Source of the DNA: Candidatus Nanoarchaeia archaeon
GTDB lineage: Archaea; Nanobdellota; Nanobdellia; Woesearchaeales; DSVV01
DNA length: 42,199 nucleotides
Assembly: GCA_048618745.1 (NCBI GenBank)
Contig: JBMCCQ010000003.1
Span: forward strand, 1-42,199
Reading direction: 5' to 3'
In this document: piece after piece, positions 1,830 through 37,168 of the stretch
How positions within the stretch are numbered: the first letter of the stretch is position 1
Layout of the letters: every line of letters starts with the position of its first letter
Program-made: the position numbers and the translations under genes
The notes under the pieces: model-generated
Told to the model about the DNA's origin: nothing
Seen by the model: the letters and a program-made list of their open reading frames with translations, nothing else
Database searches by the model: none

Positions 1830-3014
1830 ATGATGAACATTCATTTGTTATTCAGCCAATTGAAAAAGGCAGACCTGGAGTTGGACAATCTAAGCAGGAA
1901 AATATCATTTTATGCTATTAACCCCGTCAATACTGCCGAAGAAAAGGAAAAATTCTTTTCTGATGACTCCTACAATCCTCAGTTTTCCTACGCCCCCTAC
2001 ACTGAAGACCTTGAAAAATTAAGGCAGAAAATTGCCAATGTAAAAACCGACAACAGCCCTGTTGGAAAAATACTTGAACACATTAAACAAAACTACATTG
2101 ACAAAACCTATTTGCTTGAATACAGGGGGAATAATGAGCTATTTACCAAATATTCAGAAAGGGTTTATGGAAGTCCTGACCAGGCCTTGGTTTCAAAAGC
2201 ACGAGAGCTTATAAAAACCGAGTCAGAAAATGAAGAAAAGTATTACACCTCAAGAGAAGTTGTTAAGCGCTTCAGGGTGGCGTTTTTCAAATACGGCTTT
2301 CCCTGGGATGTGCGGGAAAAGGTGATGGTTTCAAATGCAGCTGTAAACGTTGCAAAAAAAGAAATCCTTATAAAAAAAGATGCAATGTTTTCAAGAGACT
2401 TTCTAAAAAGGCTCATTGTGCATGAGGTTGGAACACATGTTGCCCGGGCAGACAACGGCGAGAAACAGCCATATCTGTTTTTCAAAAGGGGCCTTCCGGG
2501 CTACTTAAAAATTGAAGAAGGCCTTGCTGTATTAAATGAAGAGCTGAACAACTGCTCCAACAACCACATTCTTAAAGTCTATGCCGGGCGTGTCATTGCA
2601 GTAGAGCTGGCACTAAAATCATCTTTCAGGCAAACCTATAATGAGCTAAAAAAACATTTTCCAGACAACACTGCATTCAGGCTCACATTGAGAGCAAAAC
2701 GCGGCCTTTCTGACACCTCTCTTCCCGGCGCCTGCACAAAGGACATCAACTATCTCAAAGGCTATCTTGAACTAAAGGACTATATTAAGGCAGGAGGAGA
2801 TTTAAGCAAGCTTTATTACGGTAAAATCGGACTTGAGCACATTGAGCTTCTTGATAAGATTCCCGGCCTGATAAACCCGGCATTTCTACCAGCATTCCGT
2901 CACATCAACTACCTTATCCATCATTTCTCATCATTTATGAAAACAATTATCCGCTTTCCCCTAACTCCTCTCAGAACAATTAACTCAGAGCTGTACCGAA
3001 GGCTTATCAGGTAA
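1830..3014 (+). CDS. DUF1704 (QEGLA-motif / MATCAP-like) metallopeptidase
   Basis: HExxxH 'HEVGTH', 'EEGLA', 'RAKRG', 'TKDINYLKG', 'LYYGKI'. Confidence 0.85.
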   Translation: MMNIHLLFSQLKKADLELDNLSRKISFYAINPVNTAEEKEKFFSDDSYNPQFSYAPYTEDLEKLRQKIANVKTDNSPVGKILEHIKQNYIDKTYLLEYRGNNELFTKYSERVYGSPDQALVSKARELIKTESENEEKYYTSREVVKRFRVAFFKYGFPWDVREKVMVSNAAVNVAKKEILIKKDAMFSRDFLKRLIVHEVGTHVARADNGEKQPYLFFKRGLPGYLKIEEGLAVLNEELNNCSNNHILKVYAGRVIAVELALKSSFRQTYNELKKHFPDNTAFRLTLRAKRGLSDTSLPGACTKDINYLKGYLELKDYIKAGGDLSKLYYGKIGLEHIELLDKIPGLINPAFLPAFRHINYLIHHFSSFMKTIIRFPLTPLRTINSELYRRLIR

Positions 3015-15374: not shown

Positions 15375-16292
15375 TTATTTTTCAATTAGCTTTTCATCCT
15401 TTACCAAAGTCCCGAAATGCCTGCCACCTTTTTCAAATCTTGTTAAGATCTTATCACCTTCACTCAGTTTTGTTACTGGTTTACTGCCTTCAGATGTCAC
15501 TACCCTTATTGTCTCTGCGTTTTGTAGAATTGCCTTTGCTGTCTGTTTACCTGAATTATTTGATACCTCCACAAGCACAAGGGGGCGAACTTCAAGTTTT
15601 GCCCTTCCTACAATACTGTTTCTTGTTATCCCCTTCCTGTTTACAACCAACACCTCATCGCCTGAAGAAATTTCTTCAAGATACCTTGTCTTTTTGCCTG
15701 TTAATGTATACATTGAAACAGCGCCTGCATTTACCCTGAATGGCCTTGGGGAGACAAAGGGGTTTTTTTCAACTTCAGCCTGCACAAGAATCATCCCCTG
15801 CGAGCTGCTTCCAACAAGCATCCCTTCGCCTTCATCCATCATGTCGCATGTGTCAATACATGCCCTGACACCCATCCCTAATGGTTTTATTTTTTGTACT
15901 TTTGCCTCTGTCAGCTTGTATTCCTTATTGGCAGTGATTAACTCCATTGTTTTTTTTAGTTCAGTTATATCGTTTGTCTCTAACACAACACCGTCTGCAC
16001 CAAGCTCGAGTGCCTCCATTGCAAGTTTGGCCTCATCCGCATTTTTTACCTTAACTAAAAGCTCAGTTTTTCCCTTAAGCTCTGCGACTAAATTTTCAAG
16101 GGGAATAATTTTTTGCCCTGTAAATTCAATAAGCACCCTCTCCCCTGCAGTATTTACAATATTTTGCTCGTCTTCTTTGCTTTTTATTTTAAACTTTTCA
16201 AGCTTACCGGCTTCTTCATAAAGTGTAAGGCCTAAAAGTTTTGCCTCGTTTTTTAGCTCCTTGTCATTTGTTTTTATTATCAGTTTTTTCAT
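15375..16292 (-). CDS. aroB': 3-dehydroquinate synthase II
   Basis: 'IIPLENL', 'RACIDTC', 'GEGMLVGS', 'RPFRVNAGAV', 'ILQNAETIR', 'GRHFG'. Confidence 0.93.
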   Translation of the reverse strand: MKKLIIKTNDKELKNEAKLLGLTLYEEAGKLEKFKIKSKEDEQNIVNTAGERVLIEFTGQKIIPLENLVAELKGKTELLVKVKNADEAKLAMEALELGADGVVLETNDITELKKTMELITANKEYKLTEAKVQKIKPLGMGVRACIDTCDMMDEGEGMLVGSSSQGMILVQAEVEKNPFVSPRPFRVNAGAVSMYTLTGKKTRYLEEISSGDEVLVVNRKGITRNSIVGRAKLEVRPLVLVEVSNNSGKQTAKAILQNAETIRVVTSEGSKPVTKLSEGDKILTRFEKGGRHFGTLVKDEKLIEK

Positions 16293-16299
16293 AATGCCT

Positions 16300-17100
16300 T
16301 CACCTCGTCTTAACCTGCACTTCCATTACTTCTAGTGCCTCTTCAACAGTTTTTTCCTCAACAATAATTTCTCTTAAGGCATTAACTATTCTTTCAGGGC
16401 TCTCATGCTGGAATGCATTCCTTCCTAGTGAAATTCCTGCAGCGCCGCCTTTCATTGCGCCATTTACCATTTCTAAAACATCTTTATCAGTTTCACATTT
16501 TGGTCCGCCCGCAATTACAACCGGGACAGGGCAGCCTTGTGTTACCTTTTTGAAGCTTTCAGGGTCTCCGGTGTAACTTGTTTTTACAATATCTGCTCCA
16601 AGTTCTGCTGCTACTCTTGTAACCATTGCAATATTTTCAGCATCCATTGAATCTTTAATATTGTCCCCCCTCGGGTAGGCCATAGCAAGAAGCGGCATCT
16701 GCATTTTTTCGCAATCTTCTGCAATCTTAGCCATGTCCTTAATCATTTCCGGCTCTGCAATATTTCCACCTATATTCAGGTGGACTGACACGGCATCGGC
16801 ACCAAGCTTTACTGCCTCTTTGACACAACCCACCAACACTTTGCCGTCAGGGTTAGATGAGAATTTCGTGCTTGCAGAAAGATGCATTATAATTCCGCAA
16901 CTGGTTGTTTTTTGTAGGTTCTTAATTATGCCCTTATGAAGCACAACCCCTGTAGCACCCCCTTTATCAATTTTTGGAACTGTTTCATTCATATCCTCGA
17001 TACCCTGCACGGGTCCTTTAGTCGTGCCATGGTCCATTGGAATAATCACGGCCTTGCCATTGTTTGTTATCCTGTTAAGTCTTATATCTTTTCCATTCAT
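16300..17100 (-). CDS. aroA': 2-amino-3,7-dideoxy-D-threo-hept-6-ulosonate (ADH) synthase (DhnA-type aldolase)
   Basis: 'IPMDHG', 'MHLSAST', 'AELGADIVKT', 'IAGGPK'; lies between asd and DHQ synthase II. Confidence 0.88.
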   Translation of the reverse strand: MNGKDIRLNRITNNGKAVIIPMDHGTTKGPVQGIEDMNETVPKIDKGGATGVVLHKGIIKNLQKTTSCGIIMHLSASTKFSSNPDGKVLVGCVKEAVKLGADAVSVHLNIGGNIAEPEMIKDMAKIAEDCEKMQMPLLAMAYPRGDNIKDSMDAENIAMVTRVAAELGADIVKTSYTGDPESFKKVTQGCPVPVVIAGGPKCETDKDVLEMVNGAMKGGAAGISLGRNAFQHESPERIVNALREIIVEEKTVEEALEVMEVQVKTR

Positions 17101-17102
17101 TT

Positions 17103-18125
17103 TTATCCCTCCAGTATTTTTTTTGCAAATAAAAGTTCAGCATTAAGGATGCTGCCTCCGGCAGCCCCCCTTATTGTATTGTGCCCTAACAAGTGGAACC
17201 TAAAATCCAGAATTTTATCCTCTTTAAGCCGGCCCACTACAACACTCATCCCTTTCTCTGTGTTTTTATCAAGCCTTGGCTGCGGCCTTTCTTCATCTTC
17301 AATGTAGTGTATAGGTTTTTTGGGCGCAGACGGAAGTTCAAGCTCCTGCGGCAGACTGCTGTAGTTTCTAAAAGCTTCTATTACTTCGCCTTTTGTTGCT
17401 TTTTTTAAAAGCTTTACACTAATGCATTCCAAATGCCCGTCTGTTACATTTACTCTGTTGCAGCTTGCACTTACTTTAATTTCTGCATTAGTTACTTTGT
17501 TTTTTTCTATTTTTCCCAAAAGTTTCAGGGGCTCGGTTTCCACCTTTTCCTCTTCACCATTTATATGAGGCAGGACATTACCTGCAATATCCATTGAGGA
17601 GACTCCCGGGTAGCCTGCACCTGAGAGAGCCTGCATTGATACAACTGAGACTTTTTCAAGACCGAATTCATCATGAAGGGGCTTTAATGCCAAAACCAGC
17701 TGCGTTGTTGTGCAGTTAGCATTAGTTATAATAAAGCCTTTTTTGCCCTTGACAAGCTCAAGATGCTCAGGATTTACCTCTGGAATAACTAAAGGAACAT
17801 CCTCATCCATCCTGTGTGCGCCTGCGTTACTTGCAACCACTTTGCCTTCATTTACAAGTTTTGTTTCATATTCAGCTGCAGCATCTGAGGGAAGCGCTGA
17901 AAACACAAGCCTGCTTTCAATCCTGTCATTAAGTCCCTTAATCTTCATATTCGCGAACTTCTCTGGAAAATCAAACAGTCTGAATTTGCATGCCTCCTTT
18001 AGGCTCTTTCCCTTGGAGCGCTCGCTTGCAATTATTTCATTTACCTCAAACCAAGGGTGGTTTTGCAAAAGCTGTAGGAATCTTTGCCCGACTGCTCCCG
18101 TTACCCCTGCTATTGCTACTTTCAT
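17103..18125 (-). CDS. asd: Aspartate-semialdehyde dehydrogenase (archaeal type)
   Basis: 'GVTGAVGQRF', catalytic 'NANCTT', 'QALSGAG', 'HNTIRGAAG'. Confidence 0.95.
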   Translation of the reverse strand: MKVAIAGVTGAVGQRFLQLLQNHPWFEVNEIIASERSKGKSLKEACKFRLFDFPEKFANMKIKGLNDRIESRLVFSALPSDAAAEYETKLVNEGKVVASNAGAHRMDEDVPLVIPEVNPEHLELVKGKKGFIITNANCTTTQLVLALKPLHDEFGLEKVSVVSMQALSGAGYPGVSSMDIAGNVLPHINGEEEKVETEPLKLLGKIEKNKVTNAEIKVSASCNRVNVTDGHLECISVKLLKKATKGEVIEAFRNYSSLPQELELPSAPKKPIHYIEDEERPQPRLDKNTEKGMSVVVGRLKEDKILDFRFHLLGHNTIRGAAGGSILNAELLFAKKILEG

Positions 18126-19339
18126 AAAGACACCTCCAAAATTTTTTTTGCTTTTTTTGCAAGAGTACTGTCAACAAGAATATCTGCTTCACAACCGCTT
18201 GTGCTGATATCTGCTATGTTAATCCCGTGCTTTGCAAGTAATGTTCCAATTTTGCCAAGAACTCCTTTTTTAATGGCAAAATCAATGCCTGTTACTGTTA
18301 TAAGTGTAATATCTTTTATTGATGTAACAGCAGTCAGGTTTTTGTTTTTCTCAACAATAGAGTGCAACACATGCAATGCTTTTACCCTGTTTTTTTTGTC
18401 GACATAAAAACAAATTGAGTACTTTGATGCAGACACTGAGTAAATGTTAATCTTGTTTTTTGCCATTTGCTCAGAGAAATGGGCCAACAGCCCCGGCATC
18501 TCATCCATTCTTTTTCCAATCACTGTGACTGCAGATTTATTTTCGCTTAGTTTTACATCAACACACCTATTTAAGGTCCCTGTAACAAGCGTTCCTGATG
18601 TAAGCAAATCACCGTTATCAAAGTTAACTATTCTTACACCAACATCTTCTGGCTTGTAGATTAAAGAGCTTTGGCATAATACCTCGCCGCCCTTAAGGCT
18701 TAAGTTAAGGGCTTCTTCAACTGTTATCTCTTTTAATTTTCTCGCATCTTTAACAGTATTTGGCTCGCCTGATAAAATCCCCGGAACATCTTTTAAAAGA
18801 ATAACTTGTTTTGGCTTTAGGATTTTACCTAAAACAACAGCTGTTGTATCTGAGCCCCCTCTTCCGATAGTTGTTACTTTACCCCCCTTTGTTCTTCCTA
18901 TAAAACCCGGGACAACAGGGATTACTTTGTTTTTTATTAGTGGCAAAAGTTTAGTTTTGGTTTTCTTTTTAGTCTCATCAATCAGGATTTCTGCCTGGCC
19001 ATGCCTGTTATCCGTAATTATTGGGAAATTGTCATTTACCTGCAGCGCTTTTGCCTTCAGACCTGAATTATTAAGCGCGGAAACAAGAATTCTTGCACTC
19101 AACTGCTCTCCTTCACTTAAGATATTGTCAATATGGCCTGGGTCTTTTTTACTGTGGGTATTTTTGGCCACATCCATTAATGAATCTGTCATTCCTTTAA
19201 GGGCAGACACCACCAAAATAGGCAGTAAGCCTTTTTTTCTCACACTCTTTATTTTTTCAACAATTTGCTTTATTGTTTTACCTTCGGCTAAACACGAGCC
19301 ACCTACTTTAATTACTACGACGGAACGGGCAATGCCCAC
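18122..19339 (-). CDS. lysC: Aspartate kinase with C-terminal ACT domains (start uncertain; see findings)
   Basis: 'VIKVGGS', 'VVSALKGMTD', 'TTIGRGGSDTTA', 'KDVPGI', two ACT-like repeats. Confidence 0.92.
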   Translation of the reverse strand: MGIARSVVVIKVGGSCLAEGKTIKQIVEKIKSVRKKGLLPILVVSALKGMTDSLMDVAKNTHSKKDPGHIDNILSEGEQLSARILVSALNNSGLKAKALQVNDNFPIITDNRHGQAEILIDETKKKTKTKLLPLIKNKVIPVVPGFIGRTKGGKVTTIGRGGSDTTAVVLGKILKPKQVILLKDVPGILSGEPNTVKDARKLKEITVEEALNLSLKGGEVLCQSSLIYKPEDVGVRIVNFDNGDLLTSGTLVTGTLNRCVDVKLSENKSAVTVIGKRMDEMPGLLAHFSEQMAKNKINIYSVSASKYSICFYVDKKNRVKALHVLHSIVEKNKNLTAVTSIKDITLITVTGIDFAIKKGVLGKIGTLLAKHGINIADISTSGCEADILVDSTLAKKAKKILEVSL

Positions 19340-19386
19340 GATACGGGCGACCCCCCACGATTTTTGTTATTGTTTTCAACATTTGT

Positions 19387-19521
19387 CTCACCTCGTATAA
19401 GCTATCTTGTTTACCTTGTGCGCCCGGAACAGAATACACAACCAATGTGGTTGTCAGAAGGCCCGGACGCGCTCTCTAAAAATAAAAGCTAAAGTACTGG
19501 TAAAAGAAGCTATAAACTGAG
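19387..19521 (-). promoter_or_regulatory. Putative attenuator RNA structure upstream of the aspartate kinase operon
   Basis: By-eye pairings: GCGUCCGGG (19470-19462) with UCCGGGCGC (19428-19420); ACAACCA/UGGUUGU (19454-19438); leader codons 19521-19499 partly complementary to 19415-19387, which includes the SD GAGGUGA. Confidence 0.55.
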
Positions 19522-19565
19522 CTAGGAAAATCTTTCACACTCCCAATAATTTTGCCTATGCTCAT
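19476..19565 (-). CDS. Putative Phe/Tyr-rich leader peptide (29 aa), missing from the ORF track
   Basis: Manual translation MSIGKIIGSVKDFPSSVYSFFYQYFSFYF*; 9 of the last 12 codons are Phe/Tyr; directly upstream of an aromatic-precursor operon. Confidence 0.7.
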   Translation of the reverse strand: MSIGKIIGSVKDFPSSVYSFFYQYFSFYF

Positions 19566-19591
19566 AATTCTTTTTTGTAGGAAACAACTTA

Positions 19592-19606
19592 TTTTTATAT
19601 TTTTCG
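19592..19606 (-). promoter_or_regulatory. BRE + TATA promoter for the leader/aspartate kinase operon
   Basis: Minus strand CGAAAA-A-TATAAAAA, ending 26 nt before the leader ATG, consistent with a (nearly) leaderless transcript. Confidence 0.7.
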
Positions 19607-19619
19607 ACCGGGACAAATA

Positions 19620-36833: not shown

Positions 36834-37064
36834 GCTGTGGTCGCATTATCTGCAAAGGGTTTCACCCTTTCGAGACTCAGGGTGCGTTTCAGTCGCTTAC
36901 GCTCCTTCAACCCCACAAAAAAAAGCGATTTATTTATGCTGCGGTCGCATAATCTGGTACTGACGCCTACGTTTTGCGCCGTAGGCACGCATGAGGGTTT
37001 CGCTTCGCTTAACCCCACAAAAAAAAGCGATTGATTTATGCTGCGGTCGCATAATCTGGTATTG
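36834..37064 (+). repeat. Tandem degenerate copies of the tRNA-Ser 5' end
   Basis: 36909-36962 vs 37011-37064: 54 bp with 2 mismatches. Third copy GCTGTGGTCGCATTATCTG at 36834-36852. Spacings 104 and 102 bp. Confidence 0.85.
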
Positions 37065-37168
37065 CGCTGGCCTTGAGCGGCGACGTATCAAAGGTTCGTA
37101 AGGCTTTGGCCTTCGCCCAAAACAGCCAGTCCCTTCGGGGATTCCCGGTTCGAATCCGGGCCGCAGCG
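37040..37168 (+). tRNA. tRNA-Ser(UGA) with a 46-nt intron at 37/38 (37078-37123)
   Basis: Acceptor GCTGCGG/CCGCAGC, anticodon stem CTGGC/GCCAG, anticodon TGA 37074-37076, long variable arm, GGTTCGAATCC T-arm, G discriminator, BHB-like splice motif; CCA not encoded. Confidence 0.93.

Follow-up and report, generated by a model that had tools for sequence, protein, structure and literature searches.

Does the short open reading frame (ORF) in front of an archaeal aspartate kinase operon encode a leader peptide that senses aromatic amino acids? The question is raised by a stretch of 42,199 nucleotides (nt) from Candidatus Nanoarchaeia archaeon (assembly GCA_048618745.1, contig JBMCCQ010000003.1), the whole of which is called the window here. 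On its minus strand, genes for aspartate kinase, asd, aroA' and aroB' are preceded by an upstream ORF of 29 codons, designated uORF1, which is rich in phenylalanine and tyrosine codons at its end. The source genome (G000) is an assembly of 0.89 Mb with a completeness of 68% and a G+C content of 37.6%. We favor the reading that uORF1 is a translated, cis-acting leader peptide, by which the supply of aromatic aminoacyl-tRNA would be sensed for this operon, and assign it a probability of about 0.5. An aromatic-sensing leader peptide of a new archaeal variety is credible.

uORF1 (19476..19565, minus strand) starts with an ATG at position 19565, ends with a TAG at 19478-19476 and encodes MSIGKIIGSVKDFPSSVYSFFYQYFSFYF. 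The last 12 residues (codons 19514-19479) comprise 5 Phe and 4 Tyr and are thus aromatic in 9 of 12 positions, as had been stated in the first-pass annotation of this DNA. The ORF listing gives the frame only as part of a longer ORF with a TTG start (19476..19616). A TATA-like box, ATATAAAA, was found at 19600-19593 on the minus strand and aligns with TATAAATA in a genome of the same genus (G003). The distance between the end of the box and the ATG is 27 nt; a transcription factor B recognition element (BRE) and TATA box 26 nt before the ORF had been reported before, of which the TATA-like box is present, at a slightly larger distance. Similar spacings were found in G003 and at a distant locus (L014). 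With a spacing of 27 nt, the transcript would begin at the ORF or very close to it, and uORF1 is probably leaderless. It contains a conserved C-terminal block of 19 codons (19479..19535, minus strand). No family match was obtained for the leader ORF in Pfam or NCBIfam, and a search with four leaders as a profile against 1.84 billion proteins resulted in a single match, the L015-type ORF itself (see below).

The aromatic content of uORF1 is not random. It had been cautioned that Phe and Tyr codons arise by default in U-rich DNA; when this caveat was tested by shuffling of the 36 bases of the last 12 codons alone, 9 aromatic residues were reached in 2 of 20,000 cases. The remaining two frames of this segment contain 3 aromatic residues or stops. 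When the 280 nt in front of the kinase were shuffled with their dinucleotides preserved, no ORF with 9 aromatic residues among the last 12 was obtained (0 of 1,000; maximum 6). In the whole source genome, such an end was identified in 2 of 6,966 ATG-started ORFs of 15 to 80 amino acids, one of which is uORF1. The other one (contig C27, 2926-2873, minus strand) encodes MSFGKFFCFSYYFFFIF and begins with MS.GK like the leader; it is located at the end of a gene, with downstream sequence that by eye is antisense to another (unannotated) gene, and was judged to be accidental.

The ORF is conserved in G003, which carries the sole ortholog of the kinase (73% identical) among the first 41 relatives searched. 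The kinase is rare, being present in 2 of 28 genomes of the family and in 1 of 401 genomes of the order (G000 itself). G003 has the identical order of the four operon genes and, at the same place, an ortholog of the leader, MEMKSDSIRFGGDFVSSIYGFFGYWFGFYF, with 9 aromatic residues among the last 12. This number was reached by none of 1,000 regional and 13 of 20,000 local shuffles of the G003 sequence. Over the final 19 codons, the two genomes share 11 identical residues and have 10 aromatic residues each. Two Ser codons differ synonymously (AGC/AGT and TCA/TCC), G000 has TAC (Tyr) where G003 has TGG (Trp) and one aromatic residue is displaced by one position (Tyr-Gln versus Gly-Tyr). The N-terminal halves are unrelated, and the lengths from ATG to TAG differ by exactly 3 nt. 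The two genomes become similar from the TATA box onward, with different neighboring genes upstream; the conserved block therefore belongs to the operon. The only metagenome contig covering the leader, a strain-level variant from another metagenome (run X3, record 3), differs from uORF1 by a single substitution, Lys5 to Gln, which lies in the variable half.

Five nucleotides past the leader stop, a hairpin termed H1 begins (19420..19470, minus strand). Its outer stem of 9 bp is formed by 19470-19462 with 19428-19420 and encloses an inner hairpin (19454-19438), which is followed by the U-rich sequence GUAUUCUGUU. H1 alone folds at −24.9 kcal/mol and its counterpart in G003, which also has a U-rich tail, at −23.8 kcal/mol. 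In G003, one G-C pair of the outer stem is changed to G.U and the sequence of the inner stem is unrelated yet still paired, and in the strain variant the exchange of G19423 for A converts the pair U19467.G19423 to U-A. The only terminator-like site before the kinase consists of the inner stem of H1 (7 bp, 3 of them G-C) and the tail GTATTCTGTT; it is weak, and one such site was found where 0.5 were expected. H1 occurs only once in the genome of G000, which ruled out a repeat or mobile element.

Between H1 and the kinase, a further small ORF was identified, as was a hairpin that covers the kinase start; both had been overlooked in the first-pass annotation and have to be included in any mechanism. 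uORF2 (19308..19382, minus strand; 24 codons, MLKTITKIVGGRPYRGHCPFRRSN) is contained in the ORF listing. It is preceded by the Shine-Dalgarno (SD) sequence GAGGTGA (19388..19394, minus strand), which is located 5 nt before its ATG at 19382, and it overlaps the start of the kinase gene in a frame one base behind that of the kinase. The hairpin (19318..19359, minus strand) was obtained in consensus and single folds, contains an SD-like run of six G (19356-19351) as well as the GUG start codon (19339-19337) and has an energy of −16.6 kcal/mol in G000 and −14.2 kcal/mol in G003. The arrangement is kept in G003, with GGAGGG and the ATG of uORF2. The block 19361-19308 is nearly identical there and is retained in three further, more distant contigs. 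These stop aligning at 19365-19368, and one of them is derived from an RNA library; an SD sequence, an in-frame ATG and the conserved residues ...IVGG were found in their loose ends. Past the GUG, the substitutions in G003 and the contigs leave the kinase residues the same or replace them conservatively, and in the frame of uORF2 they alter the encoded residues. Selection therefore seems to act on the translation of uORF2 and not on its C-terminal peptide.

The alternative that the ATG of uORF2 is the true start of the kinase, reached by a +1 shift at the G6 run, was rejected as the main reading. In the NCBIfam aspartate kinase models, residue 7 of the GUG-started protein aligns to profile position 3; the GUG therefore gives a normal N-terminus and a frameshift fusion is unnecessary. 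The idea is further weakened by the A-site codon after the G run, which is neither slow nor a stop. Additional constraint on the first codons of the kinase was discarded as well: 8 of the first 10 codons for identical residues are the same in G000 and G003, compared to a fraction of 0.467 overall (941 codons), and 45 of 932 windows are as good, so that the signal is weak.

Related loci were surveyed in genomes (16 loci) and metagenomes (12 loci). At L014, L015, L028 and L029, the last two being the only additions of the metagenome scan to this type, the kinase is 44% identical, the gene is monocistronic and the G+C content is 61%. The upstream ORF of the L014 type ends with ATLTSSFGTTTWFGF (terminal part TSSFGTTTWFGF), with WFGF at the very end. 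The peptides of L014 and L015 were aligned to the G003 leader with local scores of 39 and 38, which were matched by 0 and 2 of 1,000 shuffles, respectively. The WFGF motif is encoded by TGG TTC GGC TTC in the L014 type and by TGG TTT GGT TTT in G003. The final codons of the L014-type ORF form the base of a structure of −40 kcal/mol that ends just before the SD sequence of the kinase. The records of the genomes that hold L014 and L015 (G419 and G420) are titled Undinarchaeota; with 3.6-3.8 Mb and about 60% G+C at these loci, the assemblies are large for this group and the bins may be mixed or mislabelled. Each of the two also has a second kinase paralog (37-40% identical). A search for the kinase among relatives of G418 (1/61) and G419 (5/61) with E-values up to 1e-60 returned only the center genomes, paralogs and distant kinases.

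In the Terraquivivens loci (L017-L022, L031-L034 and L037), a conserved structured leader of about 90 nt was found upstream of the same operon (approximately 2860-2950 in each locus). It consists of three stems, an outer one formed by AGAGAGGCG with CGCCTCTCT and two inner hairpins, with energies of −43 to −50 kcal/mol. The leader is crossed by a Tyr-rich ORF of 23-25 codons (VRDCLFLT.GYSYYRYSE..ASL) and is followed by T-rich tracts and then the SD sequence of the kinase. In this ORF, a TAT/TAC difference preserves Tyr at the expense of a stem pair, and a Tyr-to-Trp change is located in a loop. The enrichment is modest (18-111 of 1,000 shuffles) and the genomes are kin. The element could be riboswitch-like, a Tyr-sensing leader, or both.

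Taken over all loci, the aromatic leader is firmly supported in the lineage of G000 and G003, probably homologous in the L014-type lineage, suggestive in Terraquivivens and absent in others. Two observations concern the last group. At L013, a gene divergent from the operon (2045-2734, minus strand) encodes a protein of 229 amino acids that carries an ACT domain, matches DUF7523 weakly and is a candidate amino-acid-binding regulator. In the thaumarchaeal loci L023 (approximately 1683-1705) and L030 (approximately 2880-2902), which have the gene order kinase-aroA'-aroB', an identical stretch of 23 nt, [AG]TGAAAGGCGATCTACTTTACTTT, precedes the kinase by about 100 nt; the flanks have otherwise diverged.

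From these elements, the following mechanism is proposed. Transcription would start about 25-30 nt past the TATA box, and the ATG of uORF1, at or near the 5' end, would be read leaderless. The ORF presents 9 to 10 aromatic codons in its last 12 to 19, and if charged tRNA-Phe, tRNA-Tyr or tRNA-Trp were scarce, the ribosome would linger there. Because the stop codon is only 5 nt from H1, the position of the leader ribosome would determine whether, and for how long, H1 folds. uORF2 with its SD sequence crosses the hairpin that buries the SD-like G run and the GUG of the kinase, and its translation would probably open this start. The state of leader and H1 might then be relayed translationally, depending on how accessible uORF2 and the kinase start are; alternatively, the output step could be transcriptional, with the polymerase pausing or terminating at the U-rich tail within H1, where a kinetic co-transcriptional mechanism is possible.

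The relay was examined by folding, in which the ribosome was modelled as a footprint of 28 nt on the aromatic codons, at the stop or across the whole 5' strand of H1. In G003, the cost of opening the SD sequence of uORF2 (SD2) increased from 3.6 to 7.1 kcal/mol with a ribosome at the stop. This change, found in one genome, would fit a model in which completion of the leader switches the operon off and stalling switches it on. In the minimum-energy fold of G000, the aromatic tract is paired with a segment just upstream of SD2; however, the cost of opening SD2 and the AUG of uORF2 stayed at 6.2-6.7 kcal/mol in all ribosome states of the scan along the leader. A three-element switch, in which the 3' strand of H1 would pair with CGCCCG upstream of the kinase GUG when the 5' strand is covered, was dropped: constrained ensembles gave no support, with opening costs of the GUG of 8.5 versus 9.1 kcal/mol in G000 and 5.7 versus 6.5 kcal/mol in G003.

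Several observations weigh against a leader peptide that senses aromatic aminoacyl-tRNA. The full arrangement is carried by only two genomes and one strain variant. In the footprint ensembles of G000, the opening costs of SD2 and the AUG of uORF2 (6.2-7.1 kcal/mol) and of the kinase start (13.1-13.7 kcal/mol) were practically unchanged, and a scan of the footprint along the leader had no consistent effect in G000 and G003. Mutually exclusive pairings were detected neither in the consensus folding nor in single folds or footprint-constrained ensembles. There is no U run after H1 or before the kinase and no strong hairpin with a U run before the kinase. The lone contig from an RNA library covers uORF2 and the kinase start in a relative, not uORF1, and may stem from carried-over DNA. 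In L014 and L015, the aromatic enrichment taken alone is marginal, since 4 of the last 12 residues are aromatic and this was reached by 57-60 of 1,000 shuffles. L013, with a kinase 57% identical and the full operon, has no similar or enriched ORF (its scores were reached by 852 and 608 of 1,000 shuffles), and no aromatic enrichment was found by the shuffle test upstream of the kinase in L016, L023 and L030. The expectation that relatives would share the ORF was borne out by G003, with its conserved frame, 9 of 12 aromatic residues and synonymous Ser changes, but not by these four loci. The attenuation model of the first-pass annotation, in which stalling on Phe and Tyr codons turns the operon on, stands in part. 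The ORF lies in the conserved 5' region of the operon, frame and aromatic residues are kept in G003 and a likeness is found at a kinase of 44% identity, but neither a bacterial terminator nor exclusive pairings nor a consistent folding switch was found.

The physiology of the pathway adds to these counterarguments. In the genus set (G000, G001, G002 and G003; 68-88% complete), Pfam searches in which the control genomes were always detected gave no chorismate synthase, EPSP synthase, type I dehydroquinase or shikimate dehydrogenase N-domain (0 of 4 genomes in each case). Chorismate mutase was found in all four genomes, prephenate dehydratase in three and the entry steps to dehydroquinate in two. 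G000 has an operon of aminotransferase, prephenate dehydrogenase and prephenate dehydratase, which begins at a contig edge. Since the genes leading from dehydroquinate to chorismate were not detected, the link of the operon product to Phe and Tyr is indirect. This gap weakens a simple logic of end-product repression, or it points to unknown enzymes or partner exchange. It suggests an odd metabolism, a small genome with entry and exit (from chorismate) of the pathway and no detectable middle. Control by aromatic amino acids is physiologically expected from Halobacterium salinarum, in which the homologous genes of the pathway are induced when these amino acids are lacking (PMC4162585).

Four other explanations were weighed. 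An element acting as RNA only is unlikely; H1, the start hairpin and the U-rich tract would then be an oligo-U pause or termination signal or a site for a protein or ligand, and the frame would be incidental. Oligo-T tracts are able to terminate archaeal RNA polymerase, and the leader ends in T4-A-T5 in G000 and T5-A-T5 in G003. Both hairpins are stable and conserved, and a clearly structured RNA precedes the same operon in the Terraquivivens loci. An incidental frame is, however, difficult to reconcile with the local shuffles, which keep the U content and rarely gave an open frame with 9 aromatic residues (2 and 13 of 20,000), with aromatic codons that are not U-rich and are kept or interchanged (TAC, TAT, TGG), with the in-frame length difference between G000 and G003 and with a G+C-rich relative that has WFGF in other codons and without the U tract. 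Rfam also gave no family over the leader region: the one match in the window at the gathering score is a tRNA elsewhere, and the 8 window matches at E-values up to 10 are all far under the cut-offs (E of at least 3.6). Slightly less probable again is a trans-acting small protein, for example a kinase partner or membrane peptide, that is co-transcribed and does not sense tRNA charging. It would explain why non-aromatic residues are also kept (D, S, S and G/S positions) and why the motif SS..G...WFGF is common to a distant lineage. The N-terminal half, however, varies freely, the aromatic residues shift in position instead of being fixed, and the stop abuts a strong hairpin in three lineages, as is typical of cis-acting leaders. 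The lack of a Pfam or NCBIfam family counts in the same direction, as does the single hit of the profile search, which is weak evidence because small ORFs are rarely called.

TnaC represents a type of arrest peptide that senses a free amino acid within the ribosome tunnel. If uORF1 encoded such a peptide, a stall at or near the stop would hold H1 open. The conserved C-terminal motif ends at the stop, H1 follows 5 nt on and, by geometry, some 5 bp at its base would be covered by a ribosome stalled on the stop codon; nothing separates this explanation from sensing at the level of codons, there is no likeness to known arrest peptides and it is the aromatic content that is kept, not fixed positions. 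It was rated improbable. A chance ORF without function in AT-rich intergenic DNA is already very unlikely. The genome has a low G+C content and contains one unrelated antisense ORF with the same 9 of 12 residues; the shuffle tests, the frame and aromatic content kept in G003 and the significant likeness in L014 and L015 argue against chance. Beyond the leader peptide favored for this operon, a wider claim can be made tentatively, at odds below even: uORF1 would be the first archaeal ribosome-mediated amino-acid attenuator, leading from a leaderless aromatic leader over a hairpin and uORF2 to a masked kinase start, and related ORFs (the WFGF ORFs of L014 and L015 and the Tyr/Trp-rich ORF of Terraquivivens) may recur in front of the archaeal dehydroquinate-entry operon in unrelated lineages.

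The gene content downstream of uORF1 had been given as aspartate kinase, asd, aroA' and aroB', and all four assignments were reproduced with Pfam. On the minus strand, the operon (15375..19339) comprises the aspartate kinase with AA_kinase and ACT domains and a GTG start (19339-18122), the semialdehyde dehydrogenase asd (18125-17103), a DeoC/LacD aldolase of the aroA' type (17100-16300) and the 3-dehydroquinate synthase II aroB' (16292-15375). The gene order is the same in G003, L013 and the Terraquivivens loci. The archaeal route from aspartate semialdehyde to dehydroquinate by these enzymes is established (PMC4162585). Upstream of the leader region, a gene for an MJ1316-domain protein of 83 amino acids is located (19871-19620). 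Metagenome runs containing the sequence are from hypersaline lakes and microbial mats. No such leader was found upstream of the chorismate mutase gene of the window (36707-36453) or of aroA'-aroB' in G419 and G420. Close to this chorismate mutase gene, two direct repeats of 54 nt (36909-37064), 102 nt apart and 96% identical, lie beside a tRNA-Glu gene, the extent of which is 37040-37168 according to Rfam and 37077-37168 according to ARAGORN. A third similar copy was seen by eye near 36850, between the chorismate mutase and tRNA-Glu genes. The repeats may be duplicated 5' parts of the tRNA or what is left of an integration site.

In bacteria, attenuation by leader peptides is a textbook mechanism, known from pheL-pheA, pheM-pheST and trpL of Escherichia coli. 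Like these leaders, uORF1 is a short ORF upstream of a biosynthetic operon with codons for the end products clustered near its end, a stop codon near a stable hairpin and a poorly conserved N-terminal part. In contrast to them, it has an archaeal TATA promoter and is probably leaderless, its Phe, Tyr and Trp codons are mixed and not restricted to one amino acid, the operon starts with an aspartate kinase and an SD-led second ORF overlaps the hairpin-buried start of the first gene. A strong hairpin with a U run before the first gene and an alternative 1:2, 2:3 and 3:4 pairing were not found. Of the features of a classical attenuator, the cluster of end-product codons and the conservation of ORF and codons are present (G003; a similar peptide in L014, L015, L028 and L029), but an intrinsic terminator before the first gene and mutually exclusive pairings are missing, and the leader is therefore not assigned to the classical transcription attenuators.

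An archaeal leader-peptide attenuator was not found in the searches, which were made outside subscription-only literature; this agrees with the earlier remark that no well-established equivalent for this operon is known in archaea. In the candidate papers, archaea occur only in the reference lists or the background, and a review of archaeal transcription-translation coupling contains neither "attenuat-" nor leader peptide or riboswitch. Its high interest comes from the lack of a recorded archaeal example. RNA polymerase and termination in archaea differ from those of bacteria, and the leader region, a compact module of about 260 nt, would, if working, show a readout of ribosome position without a bacterial terminator. 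If related ORFs do recur, the sensing of aromatic amino acids by ribosomes would be a principle of gene regulation that has been overlooked in archaea.

In methanogens, the aromatic pathway is controlled at promoters by the DNA-binding protein TrpY. For Halobacterium salinarum, an Lrp-like regulator of the aromatic pathway has been proposed (PMC4162585). The signal, the supply of aromatic amino acids, and the non-canonical entry pathway would be the same as for uORF1. Unlike the sites of such promoter-binding proteins, the conserved elements are located here in what is probably the transcribed leader, and it is L013, the locus without the leader ORF, that has the divergent ACT-domain gene.

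In mycobacteria, leaderless short ORFs with poly-cysteine tracts have been described as translational attenuators of cysteine operons (bioRxiv 10.1101/834739). Ribosomes stalled on the tract are reported to prevent an RNA structure from hiding the next ribosome-binding site, and no terminator is needed (10.1101/834739). uORF1 shares with these ORFs the cluster of codons for the amino acid of the pathway, and it would, like them, be a leaderless first cistron. The mycobacterial system is bacterial and concerns cysteine, whereas the folds of G000 do not show the aromatic tract hiding SD2 or the kinase start, and the proposed relay through a second small ORF differs from the system as described in its abstract. 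The leader of the kinase-asd-aroA'-aroB' operon may work like a classical attenuator or like this mycobacterial type.

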